From an uncultured Bacilli bacterium (GTDB lineage: Bacteria > Bacillota_I > Bacilli_A > RF39 > UBA660), in assembly GCA_934086485.1 (NCBI GenBank), contig CAKOIF010000006.1, positions 3,932 to 67,931 of the forward strand: a stretch of DNA of 64,000 bases. The letters run 5' to 3'. The notes under the pieces were generated by a model that saw only the letters and a program-made list of their open reading frames with translations, did no database searches and was not told the origin of the DNA. Position 1 is the stretch's first letter. Each line of letters begins with the position of its first letter. This document shows positions 1,747 to 64,000 of this stretch, piece by piece. The translations under genes and the position numbers were made by a program.

Positions 1747-3549
1747 CTATTTATGTAAAACTTTTATATTATTTTTTTCAAGTTCAATAGTTTCACATTC
1801 AATATTATTTGCAAGTTTATCAAGAGTTTGATAATCAACTTTTCCAAGTGGAGTTCTAGGAAGTGATGGGTAAATTACTAAATAAGCTGGTCTTTCCTCG
1901 GAAGCAAAAGCATCATTTAAATAATTTATAAGTTCATTTGTGCATTCTTCTTTAGTTTTTCCACATAAATCATCAAAAGAAACGTGACAAACTATTTTTT
2001 CATCTTTATGATTTAATTTACATAATTTAACACAAGGAAGTTCCTTTATTTTTTCCGCGATTAAAATGAGATTTACTTCTTTAGAATTGATTTCAAGTGG
2101 TTTTTGATCTCTATCAAGAACAAATAAACTTCCTGTATCGTGAACAAAACCAAAATCTTTAGTATTGTACCATTTTACGCCATTTTTATCAGTATAAATT
2201 ACACTATCGGTCATCTGTGGATTATTATAATAACAATTCATCATTGCTGGTCCAGTAACCCATATTCTACCTGGTTCATTATAACTTAAATCATTAAAAC
2301 TTCTATCTTTAATCATTACATTATTAAATGGAAGTGGAAGTCCTGATGATCCTATCATATTACAATTTGGATGTGCAACAGTAAAACAAGAATCCATTTC
2401 GCTTGCACCATAACCAGCTTCTTGAGTTATACCTGTTTCAGATTGAAATCTATTAACTTGGTTTATATCAGGTCTTTCACCACCAATAACAACTTTTTTT
2501 AGATTTCCAATATATTCATCTTTATTTTTATCATAAAGTACTGAATCCCATAAATATTGACTCCATATACCATAATTTGGTTTATGTTTAGCTAAATATT
2601 TTGGAACACTTTCATAACTTAAATCCATTTCAAGTATATTTTCAAGTCCAAGACTCATTGCCATACCAATTATATCAGCATCCCAGAATGCTAAGAATGG
2701 TGGAACAAGTGCTAAATTCTTTTCTCCTCTTTTAAGACCTAAATCAGCAATTTCGTGTTGCTTTGCAAGTGCATTATTTGCATCGTGTGAAAGTAATATT
2801 GCTTTGCTTTCTCCAGTTGTGCCTGAAGAAAGTGCAATATTCGAAGGAAGATGGTCTTCATAAACACTTTCCATAGGTCCATTATAATACTGACCATAGC
2901 TAACAAATTTACTTAAACTTATTGCTCCCTTAACATTTTTATTTTGGAGTTTATTATTAAGTGTAAATAATGCGGTCTTTAATTTTTCATCATTTAAAAT
3001 CGGTGTTGAAGCAGAAACTGGAAGTCTTAACTTTTTAATACTTTTAAATTCTTCATTATTTAATACTTCACTAATGCTAGGCTCTAAAATATCAAGAAAC
3101 ATAATTAAACTTGGATTTAAAAGTTTAATATGTTTATACATTTTTTCTTTATCTTCAGTAAAGTTAAAATGTGCAGTTATTGCTCCAACATAAGCACAAG
3201 CATATTTAAAAGCTATTAATTCTGGAGTAGAAAGTGCAATTGATACAACCTTATCTCCTTTTCCAATACCCATAGCTTTTAAAGAACGTATATATTTATT
3301 ACGCATAGCTATAAACTCACTATTAGTGATTTTTTTAAGACCACGGTTATTTAAAATAACATCATTTGGATAATCTTTATTACATGTTTCCTCGTAATCT
3401 GCTTGATTCATTTTAGGCAAATTCTCTTTCATTTTTTTAGGATCGTACCATTGTTCCCAAATTCTATCATTTTGAATAACTCCAGTAATTTGTCTATTTA
3501 GGTTAAATTTTTTATTGTTTTTTACAACATCATTTTCTCTCATTAACAA
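1747..3549 (-). CDS. AMP-dependent synthetase/ligase (adenylate-forming, acyl-CoA-ligase-like)
   Basis: 600-aa ORF with the AMP-binding signature SSGTTGESKAILLSH and downstream GYGASE / C-terminal PLGKVD-type motifs. Confidence 0.8.
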   Translation of the reverse strand: MLMRENDVVKNNKKFNLNRQITGVIQNDRIWEQWYDPKKMKENLPKMNQADYEETCNKDYPNDVILNNRGLKKITNSEFIAMRNKYIRSLKAMGIGKGDKVVSIALSTPELIAFKYACAYVGAITAHFNFTEDKEKMYKHIKLLNPSLIMFLDILEPSISEVLNNEEFKSIKKLRLPVSASTPILNDEKLKTALFTLNNKLQNKNVKGAISLSKFVSYGQYYNGPMESVYEDHLPSNIALSSGTTGESKAILLSHDANNALAKQHEIADLGLKRGEKNLALVPPFLAFWDADIIGMAMSLGLENILEMDLSYESVPKYLAKHKPNYGIWSQYLWDSVLYDKNKDEYIGNLKKVVIGGERPDINQVNRFQSETGITQEAGYGASEMDSCFTVAHPNCNMIGSSGLPLPFNNVMIKDRSFNDLSYNEPGRIWVTGPAMMNCYYNNPQMTDSVIYTDKNGVKWYNTKDFGFVHDTGSLFVLDRDQKPLEINSKEVNLILIAEKIKELPCVKLCKLNHKDEKIVCHVSFDDLCGKTKEECTNELINYLNDAFASEERPAYLVIYPSLPRTPLGKVDYQTLDKLANNIECETIELEKNNIKVLHK

Positions 3550-3616: not shown

Positions 3617-3646
3617 GTAAAAAATCAGTAATTTTACATACTGATT
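3617..3646 (-). terminator. Rho-independent terminator after the U32 gene pair
   Basis: 8-bp stem AATCAGTA/TACTGATT (3623-3630 / 3639-3646) followed on the minus strand by a U-run (plus-strand A-run 3619-3622). It overlaps the stop codon of 3645..4814. Confidence 0.6.
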
Positions 3647-4814
3647 AATTTATTTTAACTCTTAATAAATCATTTTCATTTAAATGTTTATCAACTTTTA
3701 ACTTAACAATCATTCTAGGCATATTTGCTTTTTCAATTAGTTCATCATTATCATTAAATATTTCATTTACTATGTAATCAAAAGTTTCTGTATTAGGTCC
3801 AAAAAACTGAATATTATCTCCTTTTTTAAAGAAATTTCTTTCTTCGATTACTGCAATATGAGTATTTTCATCGTATGATTTAACGATACCTAAAAAGTCT
3901 TGATTACTTTCTTCATCACGAAGATTATAATATTGATCATTTACACTCGGAAGACTCTTAAAAAACTGTGGAGCACTATCTCTATTTGCAACTCTATTAA
4001 GAACTTTTAAATAATATGATTTATCTTCTTCGGTTAGAGTATTATTTAATATTTTATCAATAATTTTACGATAGCATAGTATTACCGTAGAAATATAGTA
4101 TATAGAACGCATTCTACCTTCGACTTTAAATGTAGTTACTCCCAAATCAATCATTTCTTTGATATTTTCAATCATATTTAAATCTTTTGGTGTCATTGTA
4201 AATGGAGTTTTATCTTCATTAAAAACCCATCTGCAAATTTGAGCACATCCACCTCTGTTAGAGTCTCTTCCTGTCATAAATGAAGATAATATACATTTAC
4301 CAGAAATACTCATGCACATTGCTCCGTGAACAAAACATTCAAGTTCAAGACCAGTTTTGTCCTTTATAGCTTTAATATCATTTGTTAAAGCCTCCCTTGC
4401 AAGTACTATTTGATCTACACCAAAGTCTTTATAAAACTCTGCCGTAAAAGAGTTAAGTGTACTTGCTTGAGTAGAAAGTATTACCTTTGTTTTAAGTTTT
4501 AAATCTTTAATCATTTTTAAAACTACAATATCACTTGCAATAATGCCATCAACATTAACTCTTTCTAGATATAATAAATAGTCTTTTAAACCCTCAAGGT
4601 TTTCATTATGAAATACAATATTTACCGTAACATATACTTTTTTGTTTAAACTATGAGCATACTCTGTAGCATTTTTAATATCATCTAAATCAAAATTTTT
4701 GGCATTAGCACGAAGTGAGTAATTTTGACCACCAAAATATACTGCATCAGCACCATATAAAAAAGCAAATTTTAATCTTTCAAAATCTCCCGCTGGAGCA
4801 AGTAACTCGATCAT
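3645..4814 (-). CDS. Peptidase U32 family protein (YrrO/TrhP-like, tRNA U34 hydroxylation family)
   Basis: N-terminus MIELLAPAGDFERLKFAFLYGADAVYFGG is typical of the U32 family. It sits in the mltG-yrrM-yrrN-yrrO arrangement known from B. subtilis. Confidence 0.85.
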   Translation of the reverse strand: MIELLAPAGDFERLKFAFLYGADAVYFGGQNYSLRANAKNFDLDDIKNATEYAHSLNKKVYVTVNIVFHNENLEGLKDYLLYLERVNVDGIIASDIVVLKMIKDLKLKTKVILSTQASTLNSFTAEFYKDFGVDQIVLAREALTNDIKAIKDKTGLELECFVHGAMCMSISGKCILSSFMTGRDSNRGGCAQICRWVFNEDKTPFTMTPKDLNMIENIKEMIDLGVTTFKVEGRMRSIYYISTVILCYRKIIDKILNNTLTEEDKSYYLKVLNRVANRDSAPQFFKSLPSVNDQYYNLRDEESNQDFLGIVKSYDENTHIAVIEERNFFKKGDNIQFFGPNTETFDYIVNEIFNDNDELIEKANMPRMIVKLKVDKHLNENDLLRVKIN

Positions 4815-5584
4815 TTCTTGTCCCCCTTTATTTTATAAATAGTTTTATTATATAAAAATCCATCATCTGTTTCTACATTTATTTTTCCATTTACTAAATC
4901 TTTTATATCGTTTTCATTTAAACATATTGGATGATATATTGCATACTTAATATCCTTATTTAAATTATTAAGACCGTTAAAGTAAGGTAAATGATAAAAA
5001 TATGTACCATACTCATTTTCAAATAAAATAAATTTATGATTATTATTTTCTATAACCAAAGGATTTTCATACTTAACATTTTCATGTTTACTATAGTTTT
5101 TAATTAAGTATCTTCGTGAATAAGCACTTCCAATAAGTCCAAAAGCATATAAAGAAACCTTTTTCGAAGATTTAGAAATTATTTCATCCACTTCATCCTC
5201 GGTTATATCAAAAGGAAGTACTATGCTATCTACATATTCATTATAAATATTAACGCCTTCATAGTTACAAGCAAAATGACTTGGCATTAATATCTTTTCT
5301 ATTTTAACATCCTCAAGCATTTTAATAATACCTACATCATCAAAGATAATTCCTTTTATATTACTTGGAAGACTATGAAGCAAAGTATTTAACTTATTAG
5401 CACTATCTTCATCAAGAACTCTATTTACAAATAAATAACTATTTTCTTCCTTAATTTCACTTAAAGAAAATTCATTTTCTACGCCAACACAAAATGAAAA
5501 AAGTGGGTAAACAAAACTATCTACACCATTTTCCTTAAGTAAATTAATTTCTTTTTCACTTTTAATAATAAAAAGTTTATTCAT
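4811..5584 (-). CDS. Peptidase U32 family-like protein (YrrN-like partner)
   Basis: ORF ATGA-coupled to the downstream U32 gene, in the YrrN position of the conserved cluster. The likely start is MNKLFIIKSE (5584) rather than the track start at 5614. Confidence 0.6.
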   Translation of the reverse strand: MNKLFIIKSEKEINLLKENGVDSFVYPLFSFCVGVENEFSLSEIKEENSYLFVNRVLDEDSANKLNTLLHSLPSNIKGIIFDDVGIIKMLEDVKIEKILMPSHFACNYEGVNIYNEYVDSIVLPFDITEDEVDEIISKSSKKVSLYAFGLIGSAYSRRYLIKNYSKHENVKYENPLVIENNNHKFILFENEYGTYFYHLPYFNGLNNLNKDIKYAIYHPICLNENDIKDLVNGKINVETDDGFLYNKTIYKIKGDKK

Positions 5585-7213: not shown

Positions 7214-7449
7214 TTTGCCCTCTTTATTTTATCTAATATTCTATTGGCAATTTCAATTTCTTCATCAGTTAATTCATTTAAAATTAAATCATCCTTAATT
7301 TTACCAATGTATGCATATTTAATACCTTTACTATTTTCTTTATTATCTGTGTAAACAACTATTGTCTGCTCTAAATCATTTTCAAATGTAAAAAGTATAT
7401 TATTCTCGGTTTTTGATTTACCATTTCCTGTAACAATTTTAGCCTGCAT
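7210..7449 (-). CDS. DUF1292 family protein (YrzB-like)
   Basis: 79-aa acidic protein between ruvX and mltG, in the same position as B. subtilis yrzB. Confidence 0.6.
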   Translation of the reverse strand: MQAKIVTGNGKSKTENNILFTFENDLEQTIVVYTDNKENSKGIKYAYIGKIKDDLILNELTDEEIEIANRILDKIKRAK

Positions 7450-7864
7450 TTTTACTCCTTATATATGTTTCAAGAATTATGGCTGCGGCTTGCATATCAA
7501 CTTTGTCTTTAATGTCTTTAGCGTGTTTGCCATTTGCAAGGAGAATCTTTTGTGCCTCTACTGAGGATAATCTTTCATCCACTAAAGCGACTTTTATATC
7601 AAGCGTTTTAAGAAGCTCGCAAAAATTATATGTTCTTTGAGCAGCAAAGCCTTCACTTCCATCCATATTTTTAGGAAGCCCAATTGCTATTTCTGTTATA
7701 TCCTCTTTAGCAATTATTTCCTTAAGTTCTAAAAAAGCAGTTTCATATTCTTCACTATTAAATCTAATTACTTTATAAGGTGTAATAATTGTATTTGTTC
7801 TATCGGAAATTGCAATACCTAACGTTTTTGTACCTAAATCTAGGCCCATATATCTTGTTTTCAT
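7439..7864 (-). CDS. ruvX: Holliday-junction-resolvase-like / pre-16S rRNA nuclease RuvX (YqgF)
   Basis: N-terminus MGLDLGTKTLGIAISD and size (141 aa) are typical of YqgF. Confidence 0.9.
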   Translation of the reverse strand: MKTRYMGLDLGTKTLGIAISDRTNTIITPYKVIRFNSEEYETAFLELKEIIAKEDITEIAIGLPKNMDGSEGFAAQRTYNFCELLKTLDIKVALVDERLSSVEAQKILLANGKHAKDIKDKVDMQAAAIILETYIRSKNAG

Positions 7865-8109
7865 CGTCCTAAATACCCATTTATAATAGCCATTAATACT
7901 TCTTCACGAGAAAATTTAGTAATCTTTTTTCTAGCATCTTTATATGATGTAATATATGTTGAATCACCAGATAGTAAATAACCAATTAGTTGACTAGTGG
8001 GATTATATCCCCTTTCCTCAATGGCCTTAATAACTTCATTAATACTTATCATAATTAACTCCTGTCTTAAAACTTTTAAATCAAATATTGAAGTTTTTTC
8101 AGAATTCAT
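7861..8109 (-). CDS. IreB family regulatory phosphoprotein (UPF0297, YrzL-like)
   Basis: GYNPTSQLIGYLLSGDSTYITSYKDARKKI matches the UPF0297 core. The likely start is MNSEKTS at 8109; the track start at 8163 adds an unlikely extension. Confidence 0.75.
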   Translation of the reverse strand: MNSEKTSIFDLKVLRQELIMISINEVIKAIEERGYNPTSQLIGYLLSGDSTYITSYKDARKKITKFSREEVLMAIINGYLGR

Positions 8110-8196
8110 TAAAATTTCACTTCCTTGCACTTTTATTTTATCAAAAAAAATATTAAACTGCAACCTTACAAAAAAATGTAAGCATTTTAACTTACA

Positions 8197-37029: not shown

Positions 37030-38580
37030 CTAACTTGCTGTGTAAACATCATTATATGTACCACTGCCTGATAACTTTGCTTTAGATGATAGAGAAACGA
37101 CAGGGCGAGCGCCATATGCACCAGTCACAGTAGCGTAGTCCAAATCACCCGATGAAGAAACAAGGAACCCAAAAGCACCATAAATACTGGAAATAGCAGG
37201 CGACCCCGACCAATAATTTTGGTTTGTATACAAATAATATGAACTGTTGCTTGTATTATATACTCCTCCTGCCATTGCTACTTCATCCGCTGTTATTAAT
37301 CCTACTGGGTAGGTTAATGCCTTATTTCCTATACTACTTCCTTTTGATGTAAATTTATCACTTTCTGTTGGACAAGTTAATATTGGTTTTTTATTACTAT
37401 TTAATCTTACATTTGCTCCATAGAAATATGTTGTGCTAGTACTCATACTTCCACTTATTTCTCCTGGGGTTCCACTACTACTTGTTGTTGCACTTCGATC
37501 GTTACAAAATATTTGATCCGCCACTAAACTTTTTGTCGTTGCATCTATTTCCAATGTTGTTGTTTTATACCAATTATCTATTGCTGTTTTTATTGTACTT
37601 GCGGTGCTAGTTCCGTGTTGTGCACTTGCTGTATACATATAACCTACATACTCTGCTTTATTATAACTACTATTAAAGGTATAAGTTGTCGCATTTATTT
37701 GTGTTCCTGTTCCTGTCATTACTGTCGCTGTACTACTTGTTGGAGCCGTTGTACCAGAGTATATCATCCTTATACTTCCATCGCCATTAATTCTGATTAT
37801 TCTCCAGTACATATCTTTATCTCCTTCTTTTCCAAATTTTACCCAGTTATTATTTACTGCCCCCCTAAAGTAATATGACTTCATTCCAGTTGATGCAGTA
37901 TAATCATCATCAGCTTTATATAATCCTTTTTCACTTGCTGTTGTTACTTTACTAAAATCTGGAGTCGTTTCATTTACTGTATTATTTGCTAAAATTGTTT
38001 CCCATCCTTTTTTCTCTAAATCTATTACATCAGAAACCACTTTATTTCCTGCACTATCTTTAATCCATAAATAATACGTTCCTTCTGTTGTTATTGTAGT
38101 ACTTAAATTATAAGATATTCCACTTATTGAGGTCCAACTTGTTGGTTCAGTGCTGTTACTTGTACTTATTCCATAGCCAGATAGTTCTATATTATCAGTA
38201 AGTATTGCAGTTATTGTTGTGTCATTTATAATTAGATTGGATATAACTGGCTTTTCTGTATCAATTATCTTATCAAAATATAGTGAACACCTATCACTAC
38301 CGATAAAAGAGAAACTTACTGTACCTGAAGTACTATCATAGTTTAATACTTTACCATTATTTTCACAAATAGTCTTTTCTTCATTTAAAACATAATTACC
38401 TTTAGGTATTGCATCTGAACTTATATATTCTCCTGATTCACCTTTTACCATTATTGCTAAATTATTTTTCTTCGGTATGTATTTATTTTTAGGTTTATTA
38501 TATATTTTATTTACAAATAAAATACCTCCAATTAAAATTACTAATGATGTTAAAATTATAATTACCTTTTTATTTTTCAT
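37030..38580 (-). CDS. Membrane-anchored surface protein, hypervariable-C-terminus family (member 1)
   Basis: N-terminal signal anchor. Modules are shared with 47392 (KTICENNGKV...GSDRCS) and 61689 (EKPVISNL...GTYYLWIKDSAGNK). C-terminus NYWSGSPA...[variable]...GARPVVSL. Confidence 0.7.
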   Translation of the reverse strand: MKNKKVIIILTSLVILIGGILFVNKIYNKPKNKYIPKKNNLAIMVKGESGEYISSDAIPKGNYVLNEEKTICENNGKVLNYDSTSGTVSFSFIGSDRCSLYFDKIIDTEKPVISNLIINDTTITAILTDNIELSGYGISTSNSTEPTSWTSISGISYNLSTTITTEGTYYLWIKDSAGNKVVSDVIDLEKKGWETILANNTVNETTPDFSKVTTASEKGLYKADDDYTASTGMKSYYFRGAVNNNWVKFGKEGDKDMYWRIIRINGDGSIRMIYSGTTAPTSSTATVMTGTGTQINATTYTFNSSYNKAEYVGYMYTASAQHGTSTASTIKTAIDNWYKTTTLEIDATTKSLVADQIFCNDRSATTSSSGTPGEISGSMSTSTTYFYGANVRLNSNKKPILTCPTESDKFTSKGSSIGNKALTYPVGLITADEVAMAGGVYNTSNSSYYLYTNQNYWSGSPAISSIYGAFGFLVSSSGDLDYATVTGAYGARPVVSLSSKAKLSGSGTYNDVYTAS

Positions 38581-45006: not shown

Positions 45007-45858
45007 CTATTTTCGAGGCATATTTTTTAAATATTCTGTCTTAATATAATCATCAGTTATGTGAGTATATATTTCAGTCGAAGAAAGTGATGCGTGGCCT
45101 AAAAGTTCCTGTACGCTTTTAAGCGGGCACCCATTTTTTAACATATGTGTAGCAAAAGTATGTCTAAATGTATGAGGACTAACTTTAACTTTTAAACACG
45201 CTTTATCAATAATATTTTTGATAATAAGTTCAATTCCTCTTACAGTTATCTGTTTTCCTTTATTATTTAAAACTAAATACTCACTACTAAACTGTCTAGC
45301 ATTTAAATAATCATTAATTGCTTTAAGTGAATGATTGTTAAAGAAGACTATTCTTTCTTTACTACCCTTACCCATAACTTTAATACTATTATCCGAAAAG
45401 TTTATGTCCTTTATTTTAATATTTTTAAGTTCACTAACTCTTATTCCCGTAGCATATAAAAGTTCAATAATCATTTTATTTCTAAGCCCTAAAGCATCCT
45501 CATTATCAATACTATCAATTACTTTACGCATATCTTCATAGCTTAAAAAAGTTGGCAATTTCTTTTCTAATTTTGGATTACTAATTAGTTTAAAATAATT
45601 TACATTTACATAATTATTATCAAGTAAATAGTTATAAAAACATCTTAATGCAGATAATACAGCACTAATACTTTTATTTGATAAATTATCTATATATTTT
45701 AAATAATTCATTATTATATCTTTATTAATATTTTGATAATCTATATTATTATTTTTGCAATATGAAATAAATTCATTTACGTGAATTATATATTCCTTAA
45801 TTGTATATTCTGAGTAGTTTAATTCATATTTTAGGTATTCATTATATTTTTCTATCAT
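45007..45858 (-). CDS. Tyrosine recombinase, XerC/XerD-like
   Basis: ATGIRVSEL, HTFRHTFATHML and LGHASLSSTEIYTH catalytic motifs; 283 aa. Confidence 0.85.
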   Translation of the reverse strand: MIEKYNEYLKYELNYSEYTIKEYIIHVNEFISYCKNNNIDYQNINKDIIMNYLKYIDNLSNKSISAVLSALRCFYNYLLDNNYVNVNYFKLISNPKLEKKLPTFLSYEDMRKVIDSIDNEDALGLRNKMIIELLYATGIRVSELKNIKIKDINFSDNSIKVMGKGSKERIVFFNNHSLKAINDYLNARQFSSEYLVLNNKGKQITVRGIELIIKNIIDKACLKVKVSPHTFRHTFATHMLKNGCPLKSVQELLGHASLSSTEIYTHITDDYIKTEYLKNMPRK

Positions 45859-45910
45859 ATTTTATCCTTTTACCACCATAATTATATAAAATTAAAGTAT
45901 CCATTTCAAG

Positions 45911-45942
45911 TAAAAAAGTATAATCGTTTTCATATTATACTT
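45911..45942 (-). terminator. Rho-independent terminator after gene 45995
   Basis: 9-bp stem AAGTATAAT/ATTATACTT followed by a U-run on the minus strand. Confidence 0.6.
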
Positions 45943-45994
45943 CACTATTTTTTATTCAAAAATCGCTCTTCACAAAAGCGAAACACGATTTATA

Positions 45995-47068
45995 TTACAT
46001 CCCTATCCTATATGGATCTACTTTTGTTCCTGTCCCACTTACCACATATACATTAGATTTCAGATATAAGACTGGTCTGATAGAGCAGCCACGCGAAGCC
46101 GAGAAGTTGTCAAGATAGCCATAGTGGGAAACGAGAAGAGGTTTTGAAGAAGAATATGCACTCATTGTCCATTCATAACCATTTGAAAATAGCCAGTTTT
46201 TATTAGATGAGTTTTGAGGACTTCCACTACTTCCTAATACTCCAGTAAAGCCTTCGATTGCATAACCCCAATCACTTGCATACATCAGTCCTATTTTTGA
46301 AGTACCAGTTGCATGGGTAGCTATTTCCTGAGTATAATAATTTGCTGCAGTTTTATATGTTGAATCTCCTGCATCTATATTATAGTATACATCCTCAACC
46401 ATCTTGCCATAAAAATCAGTTACATCTATTCCATCTAATGAATAATCACATAGACCTTTTGCTGAAGTAAAATATGTATAACAATAACTATCGCATGAAG
46501 ATTTTCTTCCTAAATAACATGTATTTAAAAGATTTTGAATATTACTTCCCATCCATGTTGAATTACCTCCATATTTTATAGCCCCTATTGAATCATTTCT
46601 TATTATTTTTACTCTATTTTGAGTACTACTACATCCACTTTCTAAACATACTGGAATATTTCCTATTATTCTCCATAATTCATCATTAAACCATATATAG
46701 TTATCGGGGTTTTTACCTTGATATCTTTTACCATTTTCATTTCTAGTAGCTTTATTATTAACCTGCGTAATCAAATTAGTTACACTAGAGTTAAACGAAA
46801 CATCACAAGTAACTGTTCCAGTTATTTTAGTTATTTCTAATTTCCATGTTTTAGGATTCCATCTACCTTTTGCATTATTACAATTAACAGTTACATTATA
46901 TTTACCACTTGCTGGAAAAGACGTTGCACTATTACCATCAACAGTTAATGCAATAGTACTTCCTTTATATTTAAATGTTTTATTAGTATTTTTATTAATT
47001 AATATTAATGAAATAATAGAAATTAAAATTAATAATACACATATAACTATTTTTTTACTAGATTTCAA
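45995..47068 (-). CDS. Membrane-anchored surface protein, hypervariable-C-terminus family (member 2)
   Basis: By eye, about 85% identical in protein sequence to member 3 over the C-terminal ~270 aa. The likely TTG start at 47068 lies 6 nt after GAAAGAAGG; the track start at 47134 reads through a hairpin. Confidence 0.7.
   Translation of the reverse strand: MKSSKKIVICVLLILISIISLILINKNTNKTFKYKGSTIALTVDGNSATSFPASGKYNVTVNCNNAKGRWNPKTWKLEITKITGTVTCDVSFNSSVTNLITQVNNKATRNENGKRYQGKNPDNYIWFNDELWRIIGNIPVCLESGCSSTQNRVKIIRNDSIGAIKYGGNSTWMGSNIQNLLNTCYLGRKSSCDSYCYTYFTSAKGLCDYSLDGIDVTDFYGKMVEDVYYNIDAGDSTYKTAANYYTQEIATHATGTSKIGLMYASDWGYAIEGFTGVLGSSGSPQNSSNKNWLFSNGYEWTMSAYSSSKPLLVSHYGYLDNFSASRGCSIRPVLYLKSNVYVVSGTGTKVDPYRIGM
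46079..46153 (-). repeat. VR-like hypervariable patch of member 2
   Basis: Encodes SSSKPLLVSHYGYLDNFSASRGCSI. About 15% A on the coding strand. Homologous to 47245-47318 and 47476-47580. Confidence 0.6.
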
Positions 47069-47107
47069 AATATACCTTCTTTCTAAATTAATTTTAAATG
47101 TCGATAG

Positions 47108-47127
47108 AAGAAGCACGTATGCTTCTT
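47108..47127. repeat. Perfect 8-bp/4-nt-loop hairpin AAGAAGCA-cgta-TGCTTCTT
   Basis: Read directly. It lies between the TR-like copy and the start of gene 45995. Confidence 0.6.
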
Positions 47128-47244
47128 TGCCCATCTATTATTTTTTAAAAGTATAAAACTTTTAAGGATAATTAATATTTCTTATGCTTAACACTTTATA
47201 GCCATAGCCATAAAACCTAAACCAAACACAAGAAGTTCTAAAAA

Positions 47245-47318
47245 GATGGAGTAGCCATTCGAAGCCGAGTTGCTACCCAATAGCCGTTGTTGTTAGCGTT
47301 AAGAGGGTTCGAAGAAGA
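47245..47318 (-). repeat. Isolated noncoding AAC-rich copy of the hypervariable patch (template-repeat-like)
   Basis: Minus-strand sense: TCTTCTTCG AAC CCT CTT AAC GCT AAC AAC AAC GGC TAT TGG GTA GCA AC TCG GCT TCG AAT GGC TAC TCC ATC. Homology to the genes stops at both patch edges. It is not in an ORF. Confidence 0.6.
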
Positions 47319-47391
47319 CCAAATTTTAAAATAATTACCCTATATATACCTTTATTCAAAATCGGCTTCACATAGCGAAACACGATTTATA

Positions 47392-48711
47392 TTATATTCC
47401 TATCCTATATGGATCTACCTTACTTCCATTACCACTTACTACATATACATTAGATTTTAGATATAAGACTGGCCTGATGGAGTTGCCATACGAAGCCGAG
47501 GAGGAGGTGGAATAGGCAAACGAAGCCAACATGTTGCTGAGATAGCCGGGACTGATAGCGTTAAGAGGAGCCGAAGAAGAATATGCACTCATTGTCCATT
47601 CAAAACCATTTGAAAATAACCAATTTTTGTCTGATGAACTTTGAGGACTTCCATCACTTCCTAATACCCCACTGAAGTCTTCGATTGCATAACCCCAATC
47701 ACTAGCATACATGAGTCCTATTTTAGATGAAGTTGTTGCATGAGTTGCTATTTCTTGTGTATAATAATTTGCTGCAGTTTTATATGTTGAATTTCCTGCT
47801 CCTACATTAAAGTATACATCTTCAATCATTTTGCCATAATAGTCAGTTATATCTATTCCATCTGCTGAATAATCACACGTTCCTTTTGCTGATGTAGAAT
47901 ATGAATAGCAATAACTATCACATGATGATTGTTTTCCTAAATAACATGTATTTAATAAATTTTGAATATTACTTCCCATCCATGTTGAATTACTTCCATA
48001 TTTTATAGATCCAATTGAATCATTTCTTATTATTTTTACTCTGTTTTCTGCATTTGCACATCCACTTGTTAAACATACTGGAATATTTCCAATTATTCTC
48101 CATAGTTCATCATTAAACCATACATAATTATCTGGATTTTTGCCTTGATATCTTTTACCATTTTCATTTCTTGTGGCTTTATTATTTACTACTGTAGAAA
48201 GTAGTTCTTCATTACTTGGCGTTTTTGGAGTAAATGTAATATTGCATGATGAATTTGTTTTTGAAATATTATCAATTATAATACCATTAATTTTATAATC
48301 CCATGTACCACCAGTAATGCCATCACAATTAGTAATGCTTTTTGTATATCCCCCTAAAAGGTAATCTGGATTTGGAACATTAATTGTGAAATCTGGTATC
48401 TTTTCATAATATAAATAAACACTACATCTATCAGAACCTAATGTTTGATAAGCTAGTTTATTACCCACTATTGAGACTTTACCACCGTTTTCACATATGG
48501 TCTTGTCTTCATCAATATGATAATTTGTTAAATCACTTGGAATAGTATCTACTGAAGTATAACTTGTTTCTCCATCATTTTTAATATTAAATGCATAAGA
48601 CTTTTTTATAATACTTTTATTATCATCCTTTCTTGGATAAAAAATTATAGATAGAATTACCACTACAAATAATGAGAATAAAATGTATGCATATTTCCGA
48701 TTTTTGCCCAT
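47392..48711 (-). CDS. Membrane-anchored surface protein, hypervariable-C-terminus family (member 3)
   Basis: Signal anchor, an N-terminal module shared with member 1, and a C-terminal region shared with member 2. Confidence 0.75.
   Translation of the reverse strand: MGKNRKYAYILFSLFVVVILSIIFYPRKDDNKSIIKKSYAFNIKNDGETSYTSVDTIPSDLTNYHIDEDKTICENGGKVSIVGNKLAYQTLGSDRCSVYLYYEKIPDFTINVPNPDYLLGGYTKSITNCDGITGGTWDYKINGIIIDNISKTNSSCNITFTPKTPSNEELLSTVVNNKATRNENGKRYQGKNPDNYVWFNDELWRIIGNIPVCLTSGCANAENRVKIIRNDSIGSIKYGSNSTWMGSNIQNLLNTCYLGKQSSCDSYCYSYSTSAKGTCDYSADGIDITDYYGKMIEDVYFNVGAGNSTYKTAANYYTQEIATHATTSSKIGLMYASDWGYAIEDFSGVLGSDGSPQSSSDKNWLFSNGFEWTMSAYSSSAPLNAISPGYLSNMLASFAYSTSSSASYGNSIRPVLYLKSNVYVVSGNGSKVDPYRIGI
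47476..47580 (-). repeat. VR-like hypervariable patch of member 3
   Basis: Encodes SSSAPLNAISPGYLSNMLASFAYSTSSSASYGNSI. Carries a 30-nt insertion relative to member 2 and the TR-like copy. About 14% A on the coding strand. Confidence 0.6.
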
Positions 48712-48905
48712 AACTTCGCCTTCCTTTTTTCGTAAATTATATACATTTAGGAATTTTTATAGGCGATTTTATGGGAAAAGGGGTAGCAAAAATTAAAAAA
48801 ATTTGGTAAAATATATACATAAGGTAGGAAAATACTGGGATATATTTTCTCAAAAGTATATAATTTATGAAAAATAATGTTAGGTAAACGCTGAGTTTGT
48901 AGGAC
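48712..48905 (-). promoter_or_regulatory. Conserved upstream module L2 of the surface-protein family
   Basis: Has the same ordered blocks as L1 and L3, but the second GAAAAT-N6-CCNAGTATTT box is replaced by the RBS. Confidence 0.55.
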
Positions 48906-61688: not shown

Positions 61689-63529
61689 TTATCCAATATG
61701 ATATGGATCTGTAGAGGTTCCTGTTCCTCCAACTATTTTTAGGATACTAGAATCTAGATAAAATGTTGGTCGGACCGCAAACTGGCTAAGGCGGACATAA
61801 CTATCAGAGTAAACACGACCAGCCGAACGCAAACCAGAAGCACCATCCGAATACGAGCCATACGGGGTAAGTAACCATTCATCTTTATTAGACCCCCAAC
61901 TAGTTACTTGTGATGTAAATACCCAATCATTATTTTTACAATCACTATATGATGAACTGTTCCAATTATATAATGCTTTAGCTCTACAATTTGCCTTATA
62001 GTTGTACTACCACCAACTGTTGCATATCCATAATCGCTTGGATACATTAGTCCTACTTTAGCAAATACATATTCCGGATTACCACTATATAAATTTTGTA
62101 GTGTCCCACTTGTAGCATACGGACTTCTTTCTGCTTTATAATAGTTTTCTGTTGTTATTGTTTGACAATAATATTTACTTGATGAAGTTGCATTTTCCCC
62201 TCCTAAATGCCATTTTGCATTTACTATTGTACTGGATAATTTACTATTTACTCCACTTGTGGCAAGAAGTGTACTTAAGTAAGTTCCATTAAGTTCTGTT
62301 TTCAATGTTGCTGTAGACCAGTCATTAAGATTTTTACCGCTAGTTTGTGTTTGATTCCAATACTTACCACTTGTTCCTCCATAGTTATTTGTATCAAGTA
62401 TTTTTAACAAATTTTTTTTACCTGCACTAGTTGTTCCATTTGAGGAATATTCTTCTTTAAATAAACCTATTATTCTAAATAATAATGAAGATGAAGAACA
62501 AGTACCTTCTTTATTACTATCTAAGCATATATAATTATTTGGATCTGCTCCTTCATACCTTATACCATTCTCATTAAAAATATCTGTATTATTTGCTACC
62601 ATTAATGTCTCAAATGATGTCCCGAGTGATATTGTAAACTCTTTTGTAGTTTTGTTATTAGCACTATCTTTTACCCATAAATAATATGTTCCTTCAGCAT
62701 TTTGTGTAAAGGAAATTGTTTGACTTGTTCCTGAAAAGCTATTATATTCTTCAGGCTCTATAGTACTACTTTCACTTACTCCATAAAATGCAAGTGATAT
62801 GTTATCTGTAGCGGTAAATGTAACTGTAGTATCGTTAACACTTAACGAAAAAATAACTGGTGCTTCACTATCACTATTTTTATCAGCATATACATTACAT
62901 ATTGCTTTTTTGGTTGTTAATACTACAATGTTTCTCCCAACTATTGAAACTGTTGCTCCATTCGTACAACTTGTTTTACTTGTATTTATGGTGTAATAAT
63001 AACCTGTTTCATATAATGGTAATTGGCCCATTTGATTATAATTTTTATCATCAGTATTGCCTAATTCTTGTTGAACAAAAAGGTTTACTTCATAATCATC
63101 AATATAACCATCAATTGCATCAAAGTATACTTTACATTTTCCTTTCTTTGTGGCATCTACATAAAACTTTTGATTTTCATATTTTTCTATTGTTATTCCT
63201 GTATCACATACTGTCTTTGAACTTTGATATGTGTATGAAGTTGCACTTGGCACATAATAAGAAAGTGCATATGTACCAAGACCTACTCCATTATCATTTT
63301 TATTTTCTCTATATACTTTGATTGATACATCTGATGAATCTATTAAAGCTACTCCGGAGATTATTAATTTTGAACTCTTATTTTGATAAAATGAATATGA
63401 TATTAAAATTATACTAGAAAGTATTGATAAAATAATTATTGTTAATATTGTTAAGCATCTTTCTTTATTATTACTATAATACTCCTTAAAATTATTTACT
63501 AATTTTTTCAAACCTCTCACACCTTCCAA
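61689..63529 (-). pseudogene. Surface protein, hypervariable-C-terminus family (member 4), with a 1-nt frameshift near 62000
   Basis: The track ORF ends in out-of-frame sequence after ...YGYATVGGSTT. Shifting frame at ~61998-62002 restores KANCRAKALYNWNSSSYSDCKNNDWVFTSQ...EWLLTPYGS...AVRPTFYLDSSILKIVGGTGTSTDPYHIG* (stop at 61689-61691). The start is either TTG 63529 or TTG 63511. Confidence 0.7.
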
Positions 63530-63789: not shown

Positions 63790-64000
63790 TTAACCAATAT
63801 GATATGGATTTGGTGATGTTCCTGTTCCTCCGACTATTTTTAACATACTAGAATCCAAATAAAATGTTGGTCTAACAATATATTTACCGCTTGCTACTGA
63901 ACCAGCAGTTCCATTCATAGCAGATACGCTTCCAGTCCAACCTAGCATCGCTGCACCATATGAGGTGACCGAATCTGGTGAAATCATCCATTCTCCACCA
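63790..64000 (-). CDS. Surface protein, hypervariable-C-terminus family (member 5), C-terminal fragment cut by window end
   Basis: GEWMISPDS...[variable]...YIVRPTFYLDSSMLKIVGGTGTSPNPYHIG*. The 3' ~90 nt are closely similar to 61689-61780. Confidence 0.7.
   Translation of the reverse strand, partial: GGEWMISPDSVTSYGAAMLGWTGSVSAMNGTAGSVASGKYIVRPTFYLDSSMLKIVGGTGTSPNPYHIG

Follow-up and report, generated by a model that had tools for sequence, protein, structure and literature searches.

The prototype mechanism of diversity-generating retroelements (DGRs) is the one known from BPP-1, a phage that infects Bordetella. The subject of this report is a module of DGR type in a stretch of 64,000 nucleotides (nt) from an uncultured Bacilli bacterium of the RF39 group (the window; contig CAKOIF010000006.1), in which a template repeat (TR) lies between two paralogous surface-protein genes, gene A and gene B, each with a variable region (VR-A and VR-B) at the C-terminal end of the encoded protein. 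We assign a probability of about 0.85 to the reading that this module is the relic of a DGR template, inactive in this genome, and that the VRs are frozen records of the last homing events.

The closest described elements are DGRs of the avd-RT-TR architecture (RT, reverse transcriptase), which is B2 of Wu et al. (2018; Nucleic Acids Res 46:11; PMC5758913). In BPP-1 and 207 other DGRs the TR is bracketed by an RNA duplex, with an adjacent stem-loop and adenosines and a tetraloop-capped stem (bioRxiv 10.1101/2023.10.23.563531). Incomplete DGR loci and the diversification of remote targets in trans have been described for Thiohalocapsa PB-PSB1 (PNAS 2024; PMC10907252), where diversification by components encoded elsewhere was likewise proposed. 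Remote targets were also reported by Wu et al. (2018; PMC5758913), and according to work quoted there the supply of avd, TR and brt in trans functions experimentally.

The relatives with which the window was compared are gut metagenome-assembled genomes (MAGs) named 'Mycoplasma sp. CAG:472' or 'uncultured Bacilli', in which the same TR lies between the orthologues of genes A and B; their loci or contigs are given L-numbers below. As in known avd-RT-TR DGRs, the differences between TR and VRs are adenine-specific, the VRs are C-terminal in surface proteins, and the relatives encode bAvd and an RT of ~350 amino acids (aa). As in the BPP-1 DGR RNA, the TR lies within a duplex of upstream and downstream sequence, accompanied by a stem-loop with adenosines and a tetraloop stem. 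Mechanistically the element appears to be an ordinary DGR of the avd-RT-TR type. Unlike such DGRs, the window has no RT, no Avd and neither of two small open reading frames (ORFs) of the relatives, and its TR is frameshifted; the TR of the relatives is 3' of the RT gene rather than between avd and RT; there are two flanking targets, from a family with no Pfam domain above threshold; and the host is an uncultured gut Bacilli lineage with a reduced genome. The Thiohalocapsa loci and other remote targets usually have no TR of their own and borrow both TR and RT from a complete DGR, whereas the RT-less locus described here has kept a distinct TR (3' end TACTCCATC) with its scaffold RNA and would borrow proteins only. 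The module in the window itself, unlike incomplete loci serviced in trans, is no longer usable. What the window holds is read as the remnant of an element type already known, here in a host lineage and with a target family that are both new. A full-text literature search found no paper naming both DGRs and RF39.

Template repeat, variable regions and structured RNA

The target genes, their VRs and the TR are as follows.

47392-48711, minus strand: gene A, 439 aa, upstream DGR target paralogue with a hydrophobic N-terminal segment
47476-47580, minus strand: VR-A, 105 nt, with a 30-nt tandem duplication
47245-47318, minus strand: TR, 74 nt, AAC-rich and non-coding; 1 nt is deleted at 47280/47279, and 47269-47279 is degenerate
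45995-47068, minus strand: gene B, 357-aa surface protein with start codon TTG at 47068, downstream DGR target paralogue
46079-46153, minus strand: VR-B, 75 nt

A sequence-only reading of this stretch had taken 47245-47318 for a template copy of hypervariable patches in the two genes. The minus-strand letters that it gave for the copy are exact and the codon substitutions that it listed for both genes are right. Alignment and blastn bear out that the copy, which occurs once in the 64 kb, is homologous to VR-A and VR-B alone and that the homology ends abruptly at both edges: the genes read GAGTGCATAT, patch, AG(A/G)CCAGTC, whereas the copy reads AAAATTTGG, patch, TTTTTAGAAC. The copy is contained in none of the listed ORFs of at least 50 aa, as the reading had also stated. 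The TR and VRs are not of the same length and co-linear, the window TR having 74 nt against 75 nt in VR-B and 105 nt in VR-A. The nucleotide missing relative to VR-B was lost after GGCTAT, the stretch 47269-47279 is degenerate (TGGGTAGCAAC, where intact relatives have CTCAACAACAAC), and A>G changes are present besides. The deletion and the degenerate stretch place the window copy out of frame with the VRs; the sister TRs of L001, L006, L008 and L072 are 75 nt long and in frame.

In a formal count, mismatches were enriched at TR adenines in both VRs. Against the window TR, VR-B was mismatched at 11/18 A sites and 9/56 non-A sites (Fisher p = 4.6e-4), and VR-A at 9/18 and 11/56 (Fisher p = 0.015, a value that depends on the alignment). 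The earlier estimate that about half of the copy's adenines are substituted in each gene is thereby matched, while its figure of about one in eight for non-A positions was somewhat optimistic, the counts coming closer to one in five or one in six. Against the intact sister TR of L072, the corresponding mismatches were 12/22 and 5/53 for VR-B (Fisher p = 6.8e-5), and 13/22 and 3/53 for VR-A, taken as its 5' part and second tandem unit (Fisher p = 1.4e-6). The five non-A changes of VR-B against the sister TR are all C>T or C>A. Since the VRs are closer to the intact sister TR than to the window TR, the source from which they were written was probably an ancestor of the copy that was still intact; copy and VRs both appear to have drifted afterwards.

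The hypervariable columns among gene B homologues, SSSxPLxxxxGYLxxxSASxGxSIRPV, coincide with the AAC, AAT and TAC codons of the TR. The VR patches are also outliers in composition, with 46-54% GC against 26% in the window; a GC content of 45% or more coincides with 17% A or less on one strand in only three 90-nt stretches of the window, VR-A being among them. The two tandem units of VR-A (47506-47535 and 47476-47505), both from the last 30 nt of the repeat, carry different A-site substitutions, and non-A changes number 5/22 in unit 1 against 1/22 in unit 2. Template jumping in cDNA synthesis could have given rise to them, or duplication followed by partial re-homing.

A chance resemblance or an assembly artefact is hardly credible: the copy matches VR-A within the window over 25 nt at 92% identity (blastn, E = 2.9e-4), the module matches the VRs of relatives with E values down to 6e-8 (nhmmer), and independent assemblies, produced by different assemblers, repeatedly show this arrangement.

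The TR and its 3' region were aligned across 18 loci, including the paralogous DGR described below and distant species (L016-L018, L025), and folded with RNAalifold. The following elements were obtained.

47108-47340, minus strand: whole DGR RNA module
47332-47340 (GGGUAAUUA) with 47166-47174 (UAAUUAUCC), minus strand: 9-bp duplex bracketing the TR, its partner 70 nt downstream of the TR
47224-47235 with 47178-47189, minus strand: internal helix of 9-10 bp
47145-47165, minus strand: stem-loop followed by an A-run
47108-47127, minus strand: perfect 8-bp hairpin with a UACG loop (AAGAAGCA-TACG-TGCTTCTT)

The last of these had been noticed as a perfect hairpin from the sequence alone; it is conserved as well, with compensatory changes at 6/8 pairs across the 18 loci. 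Over five helices, 96.3% of cells were paired against 44-53% in slid controls, and 18 pairs were changed on both sides against 3-5 when the 3' partners were slid. The observed covariation score was matched by 0/500 shuffles. The minimum-free-energy fold of the window's own sequence contains every consensus helix, and the RNA scaffold around the window template is predicted to be intact. A search of 45800-48900 against Rfam gave no match at E<=1.

A scan for promoters around the TR was uninformative (12 sites against 9.0 +/- 2.9 by shuffling). Selective constraint on the TR spacer was considered and set aside: in RT-less genomes the spacer is conserved at ~97-98% by eye, with four-fold-site identities of 87-95% in topA and 71-85% in genes A and B, and this high identity does not discriminate because the spacer doubles as the 5' region of gene B. 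In these genomes the rate of change in the TR itself is roughly neutral.

The enzyme cassette of relatives and the deletion scars in the window

The cassette of relatives has the order gene A, accessory ORF, bAvd, 353-aa RT, TR with structured RNA, small ORF and gene B. On contigs L002-L005, which carry the homologue P0071, the orthologues of genes A and B lie 2.4 kb apart. A 95-aa ORF comes first in this interval and is followed by bAvd, a fragmented RT gene, the TR orthologue and an 81-aa ORF. The TR orthologue directly follows the RT stop codon and has the flanks of the window copy (GGGTAATTATTTTAAAA before, TTTTTAGAACTTCTT after). bAvd and RT fragments occupy the same interval in L009, as in L002-L005, and gene A orthologues flank the Avd-RT cassette in L003 and L089. 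The RT is broken in L003, L009 and L010; the RT of L089 (P0193) is intact, with 353 aa, an RVT_1 match (E = 1e-16) and YMDD, and is 96-99% identical to the L003 fragments. Avd, an accessory protein that most DGRs have, matches in the relatives PF22296 (bAvd; E = 5e-8 and 3.6e-7) and, over its full length, the NCBIfam model DivGenRetAVD (E = 3e-7, under the curated cutoff). Because the relatives' orthologue of the copy, with the same flanks, sits directly after the Avd and RT genes, and in view of the adenine bias, the window copy appears to be a genuine DGR template repeat, as the sequence-only reading had proposed.

A paralogous second DGR with an intact RT occupies another chromosomal site in L013-L015 and L085. 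L014 shares its CAG:472 assembly with the RT-less L008, and L015 its MAG with L009, in which the RT is broken. The motif [LIV]GxxxSQ marks DGR RTs; it reads IGNQSSQ or IGNMTSQ in L016-L018 and L025, and has the variant form LGGQVQQ in L013-L015. Among solved structures, the L014 RT was matched best by the 328-aa chain 8ub7_A (E = 7e-13) and less well by a group II intron maturase; the label of the chain is 'Reverse transcriptase' and no more, and we take it to be BPP-1 bRT. When flanks of the L085-type second DGR were sought in the window, paralogue matches only were obtained. A phage origin of the RT was rejected, as a scan of IMG/VR for a relative of it found nothing.

The RT cassettes examined have two small conserved ORFs: an ORF of 72-147 aa precedes avd, and an ORF of 81-96 aa separates TR from target in every RT-bearing cassette. 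They lie at 7856-8143 and 9751-9996 in L003, at 3641-4084 and 5757-6026 in L014, and at 7441-7659 and 9329-9589 in L089. Both are still kept at 37-46% identity in other species and both are deleted in the window. The pre-avd ORF has a weak match to MutS_I (E = 0.058), and the pair could be equivalent to the accessory genes that Wu et al. (2018) call 'MSL'.

In the window, the cassette is represented by two scars, the first adjoining the terminator of gene A.

47358-47388, minus strand: hairpin and T-run after gene A, read as an intrinsic terminator (fold -12.1 kcal/mol)
47341-47357, minus strand: deletion scar 1, where relatives hold ~1.8 kb (accessory ORF, bAvd, 353-aa RT)
47069-47100, minus strand: deletion scar 2, the last ~7 codons (…INLERR) of an 81-96-aa ORF

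Scar 1 was defined by end-to-end alignment of the spacer between genes A and B with L001, L006-L008 and L072, the RT-bearing versions being those of L003 and L089; scar 2 was defined by comparison of the window with L003 9700-10000. The window's 257-nt spacer aligns end to end with those of L001, L006-L008, L072-L077, L082, L084 and the first module of L089. The RT-less loci have a junction in common: GAATAAAGGTATATAT comes after the gene A terminator, and behind it stand the final ~18 nt of the RT gene (AGGTAGAAATACCATTAA). These ~18 nt are kept in L001, L006-L008 and L072, and the window has lost a further 28 nt. Every locus with a TR ending TACTCCATC, the ending of all RT-less TRs, has scar 1, with accessory ORF, Avd and RT gone, whereas all RT-linked TRs end GCAGCT, GCGGCT or GCAGT. 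The second deletion, of the small ORF between TR and gene B, is likewise common to the RT-less loci, and its remnant is the source of the N-terminal extension in the ORF 45995-47134.

Searches of the 64-kb window by tblastn with an intact RT, Avd and both small ORFs gave no match (all E>0.6), nor did tblastn with three intact RTs (all E>0.8), and a motif scan of the window found no RT-like ORF bearing YxDD, in agreement with the earlier statement that it holds no RT. The shared junction and the lack of RT or Avd matches in the window together lead to the conclusion that both were lost from this very locus. The earlier proposal that RT and Avd are encoded elsewhere in the genome is unsupported as written: they were encoded at this spot and deleted, with the scar 47341-47357 in all RT-less relatives. 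The loss appears to have happened once, in the ancestor of several lineages; topA of the RT-less lineages differs at 5-13% of four-fold sites.

State of the module in the window lineage and its sisters

The TR, VR-A and VR-B are identical across L078-L081, from four samples, which share 99.1-99.99% identity with the window over 10-13 kb with up to 44 mismatches in 7.5 kb. Samples with the window lineage are ERZ4561121, ERZ28615111, ERZ15610132 and ERZ4561357; contig NODE_476 of ERZ4561121 matches the window at 99.99% over 13 kb. Among near-full-length members of the window's 90% protein cluster, 8/13 have an identical VR-B peptide, which in three others shows a single substitution, H to N; one of the eight occurs on 26 contigs. 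Ongoing diversification, in the form of VR alleles that differ at template adenines only, was not seen in the window lineage. The number of non-A mismatches between TR and VR rises with RT loss, from 1-2/50 with an intact RT (L015) through 3-6 of 52-55 with a broken RT (L003, L009) to 4-15 of 49-57 where the RT is deleted (window, L001, L006-L008); the exception is the RT-deleted L072 lineage, with 0-1/53. Of the earlier proposal, the alternative 'or a decaying one' is the part that fits: the template has a frame-breaking deletion, the VRs agree better with the sister TR, and the VRs are invariant in the four samples. That the TR is 'serving these genes' would be true of the past only.

These observations also bear on the possibility that the copy is a working TR, transcribed here and used by an RT-Avd pair encoded elsewhere, with VR-A and VR-B still diversifying. 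We consider this improbable, even with the RNA scaffold needed for cDNA synthesis apparently intact in the window and a second DGR with intact RT in relatives (L014 with L008, L015 with L009, and L085). Because the window TR is 1 nt short, homing would frameshift the target, and neither VR has the deletion. VR-B is mismatched at 9/56 non-A sites against its own TR and at 5/53 against the intact sister TR, the VRs are invariant in the four samples and in most members of the protein cluster, and in CAG:472, where a second intact RT is present, the VRs of the orphan module still look old (11-12/56 non-A mismatches). A VR of this TR type, which lies in L101 0.3 kb upstream of an intact cassette of accessory ORF, Avd, RT and a different template (TR2), and the alleles of L072-L077 described below speak for continued use in sister lineages.

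Some findings weigh against regarding the window module as inactive. The window covers 64 kb, and a trans-acting RT could be encoded elsewhere in the genome. The description of its VRs as static comes from four near-identical metagenome contigs, a small sample. Finally, L084 shares the TR, spacer and VR-A of the window. Between the two, however, 23/75 positions are changed in VR-B and 14/915 in the remaining gene B, and VR-B appears to have turned over somewhere in the wider lineage that includes L084. Eight of the L084 VR-B differences are at non-A sites, and the recombination of old alleles therefore fits better than recent homing.

In the sister loci L072-L077 and L094-L099 both deletions of the window are present, yet the TR is intact and in frame. 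L072-type samples include ERZ8157916, ERZ925123 and ERZ27261757. No RT was found within 6 kb on either side in L072-L076, and tblastn for RT or Avd on the L096-L100 contigs found none. L072, L075 and L076 differ from one another at 0-1 positions in gene A outside VR-A, at none in VR-A, at none in the 434 nt that comprise the 3' end of gene A, the spacer and the TR, and at 0-2 positions in the 936 nt of gene B outside VR-B, against 14-15 positions in the 75 nt of VR-B. Their VR-B alleles differ from each other at template adenines alone, and each is mismatched with the TR at 12/22 adenines and 0-1/53 other positions. The three alleles would represent three independent randomizations of one template on a near-clonal backbone. 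The sister VRs end TCCATC and therefore appear to have been written from the orphan template, after the deletion, and if so the RT would have been supplied from elsewhere, in trans. An intact template without enzymes thus appears still to rewrite its target gene in the sister lineage; L072-L077 are metagenome contigs, and a sub-population could retain the cassette. L094 differs from L072 by two A-site changes only and has one non-A mismatch in common with it, a pattern by which some of the variation is point mutation.

Candidate sources of the RT were found in several places. In L089 the orphan module has, immediately on its downstream side, a full cassette that includes a TR2; in L101 an orphan-type VR, in which all non-A sites match, stands beside the cassette mentioned above; and assemblies holding L008 or L009 contain the paralogous DGR (L013-L015, L085). 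The samples retrieved with RT-less loci and with RT contigs are few and do not overlap, and a comparison of their co-occurrence was uninformative. We regard it as an even chance that the RT-less module is an independent template gene, dependent on RT-Avd from another DGR cassette whose own TR is different; the evidence for this comes from sister lineages (L072-L077, L100, L101) and not from the window strain. If true, one enzyme pair serves two or more unrelated templates; template modules are gained, lost and exchanged between strains independently of the enzyme; and the window is the end state of such a module, just after the template was disabled. A search of the literature found no description of an RT-less locus with its own TR serviced by the RT of another DGR, the nearest being PMC10907252.

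The same loci allow a further alternative to be weighed, namely that the copy is no DGR template but either part of a third paralogue or a silent cassette that donates sequence for antigenic variation of genes A and B by gene conversion. Genes A and B and their relatives do recombine: the segment from gene A through the TR to gene B is near-clonal where topA differs by 0.6-2.8%, L092 joins a cluster-4 gene B to a different TR and gene A, and the VRs of L100 are identical in both genes. This alternative is nevertheless very unlikely. The copy has AAC or AAT where the genes vary and its mismatches are A-biased; its flanks are a conserved structured RNA that follows the RT gene in relatives and contain no gene sequence; and the alleles of L072, L075 and L076 differ at template adenines alone, which conversion from a single cassette cannot yield. 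Silent cassettes of the pilS/pilE or vls kind come as several partial gene copies without promoters, from which segments pass unaltered to an expression site, whereas here a single copy was found, with RNA flanks and differences that are A-biased and not mosaic.

For the DGR relic, the following course is proposed. The element would earlier have acted on the two surface-protein genes beside it, diversifying the putative ligand-binding patch at the C-terminal end of each product. As read from the alignments, a deletion of ~1.8 kb then took the accessory ORF, Avd and RT, and a deletion of ~0.25 kb took the small ORF, which probably left a TR without enzymes between its two targets. To judge from the sister lineage, this enzyme-less module could still have been copied into VR-B with RT-Avd from another DGR cassette. 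In the window lineage the template would then have received the 1-nt deletion and several substitutions that are seen in it, and change in the VRs appears to have stopped, apart from drift by ordinary GC>AT mutation.

For annotation, the window would hold a dead DGR template, and its hypervariable-looking patches would be frozen VRs and not an active hypermutation system. The wider series of loci holds more interest than the window itself. The gut Bacilli species complex offers a natural series of DGRs, from intact, through RT broken and RT deleted with the template in use, to RT deleted with the template decayed. With existing metagenomes, this series makes it testable whether RT-Avd can service a foreign template RNA in a natural host and how fast TR and VR drift after homing stops.

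Further observations were made on these loci. Within 2001-9000 of L072-L077, the segment from gene A to gene B (~2.7 kb) has no more than 3 differences outside VR-B; the neighbouring genes are more divergent, with differences at 13-59 of the 2126 positions in the adjacent topA and, in the downstream genes, at up to 141 of 1900. A near-identical module among diverged strains points to a recent sweep of the module as a whole or to its horizontal exchange. In L092 the TR that accompanies the cluster-4 gene B and the different gene A is frameshifted. In the RT-less L100, VR-A (2028-2102) equals VR-B (3452-3526), and from the CCT codon on all non-A sites match the TR; gene conversion, use of the same cDNA twice or assembly collapse could account for the identity. 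In L089 the orphan TR is frameshifted as in the window, the adjacent complete cassette is intact, and gene B of the orphan module (4433-5128; 231-aa ORF) reads as a pseudogene with an internal stop; this module looks like another stage of the same decay.

Target family and neighbouring genes

Genes A and B are paralogous, with 72% identity across the C-terminal ~310 aa, and the hydrophobic N-terminal segment of both was read by eye as a membrane anchor or signal. The ORF listed for gene B is 45995-47134; its homologues are called at 357 aa, which matches the TTG at 47068, and the extension upstream of 47068 is considered spurious. Homologues of gene B (n = 1378) come nearly all from (human-)gut metagenome assemblies. 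Searches of genes A and B against Pfam and NCBIfam gave zero matches, and a profile of 24 diverse family members gave a chance match alone against PDB sequences. Two AlphaFold2 runs, one on full gene B with 42 sequences and one on the C-terminal 249 aa with 30 sequences, reached pLDDT 33-34.

The VRs of DGRs are located in ligand-binding folds of C-type-lectin-like or Ig-like kind at the end of the target. In Firmicutes phages, DGR targets include the C-type-lectin-like domain DUF6273 ('tentaclins', PMC10743442; Faecalibacterium prophages, PMC11792537). Weak DUF6273 matches were obtained in relatives exactly at the VR (positions 132-172 in a profile of 172; ~15 bits, the cutoff being 23.5 bits), and none in genes A and B themselves. 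As in DUF6273 targets, the VR is at the extreme C-terminus of the domain and is followed by a strand of (R/Y)P(V/A)LYL type. Unlike the phage targets, genes A and B are chromosomal cellular genes, and the matches of their relatives are below the Pfam threshold. The locus adds a large unannotated surface-protein family (1378 homologues, no Pfam domain) to the DGR targets of the human gut.

The terminator element at 47358-47388 follows every target gene of the family, with 91-97% identity 3' of the targets at all loci examined. The corresponding element of gene B was found by folding and scanning.

45963-45981, minus strand: terminator-like hairpin after gene B

Patches that satisfy the same GC and A criterion as VR-A occur at 37081-37210 (minus strand) in gene 37030-38580 and at 61741-61900 (minus strand) at the end of gene 61692-63529. 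Both are in the C-termini of distant paralogues of genes A and B, just upstream of an RPV/RPT…L motif, and look like VRs of other DGRs; no template matching the 61741-61900 patch was found within the window. In 61692-63529 (minus strand), the 541-aa ORF (61904-63529) does not share its frame with the C-terminal piece that bears the VR (61692-61934), which a frameshifted pseudogene or a sequencing error would explain. The C-terminus of a further paralogue lies at 63793-64000 (minus strand), cut by the window end.

After gene B, 45007-45858 (minus strand) encodes a tyrosine recombinase of XerC/D type (Phage_integrase, E = 4e-45). In relatives this position is mostly taken by a 244-aa ORF and an amidoligase, and in L089 by a whole second DGR module; the break in synteny is a place where a neighbouring RT cassette could have been lost.

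Upstream of gene A, inverted repeats of 35 nt (48726-48760 and 48840-48874) surround 79-89 bp, and the same repeats occur in L072 at 4190-4224 and 4314-4348. Relative to L072, a segment of ~148 bp is inverted in L073, L074, L075 and L077 (a reverse-strand high-scoring segment pair at 96% identity, against 60 forward mismatches), while L076 is oriented as L072; among the four window-lineage contigs no inversion of this segment was seen. The segment looks like an invertible, phase-variable promoter. By reading, a similar upstream sequence precedes gene 61904-63529, and the recombinase 45007-45858 is a candidate invertase for the switch upstream of gene A.

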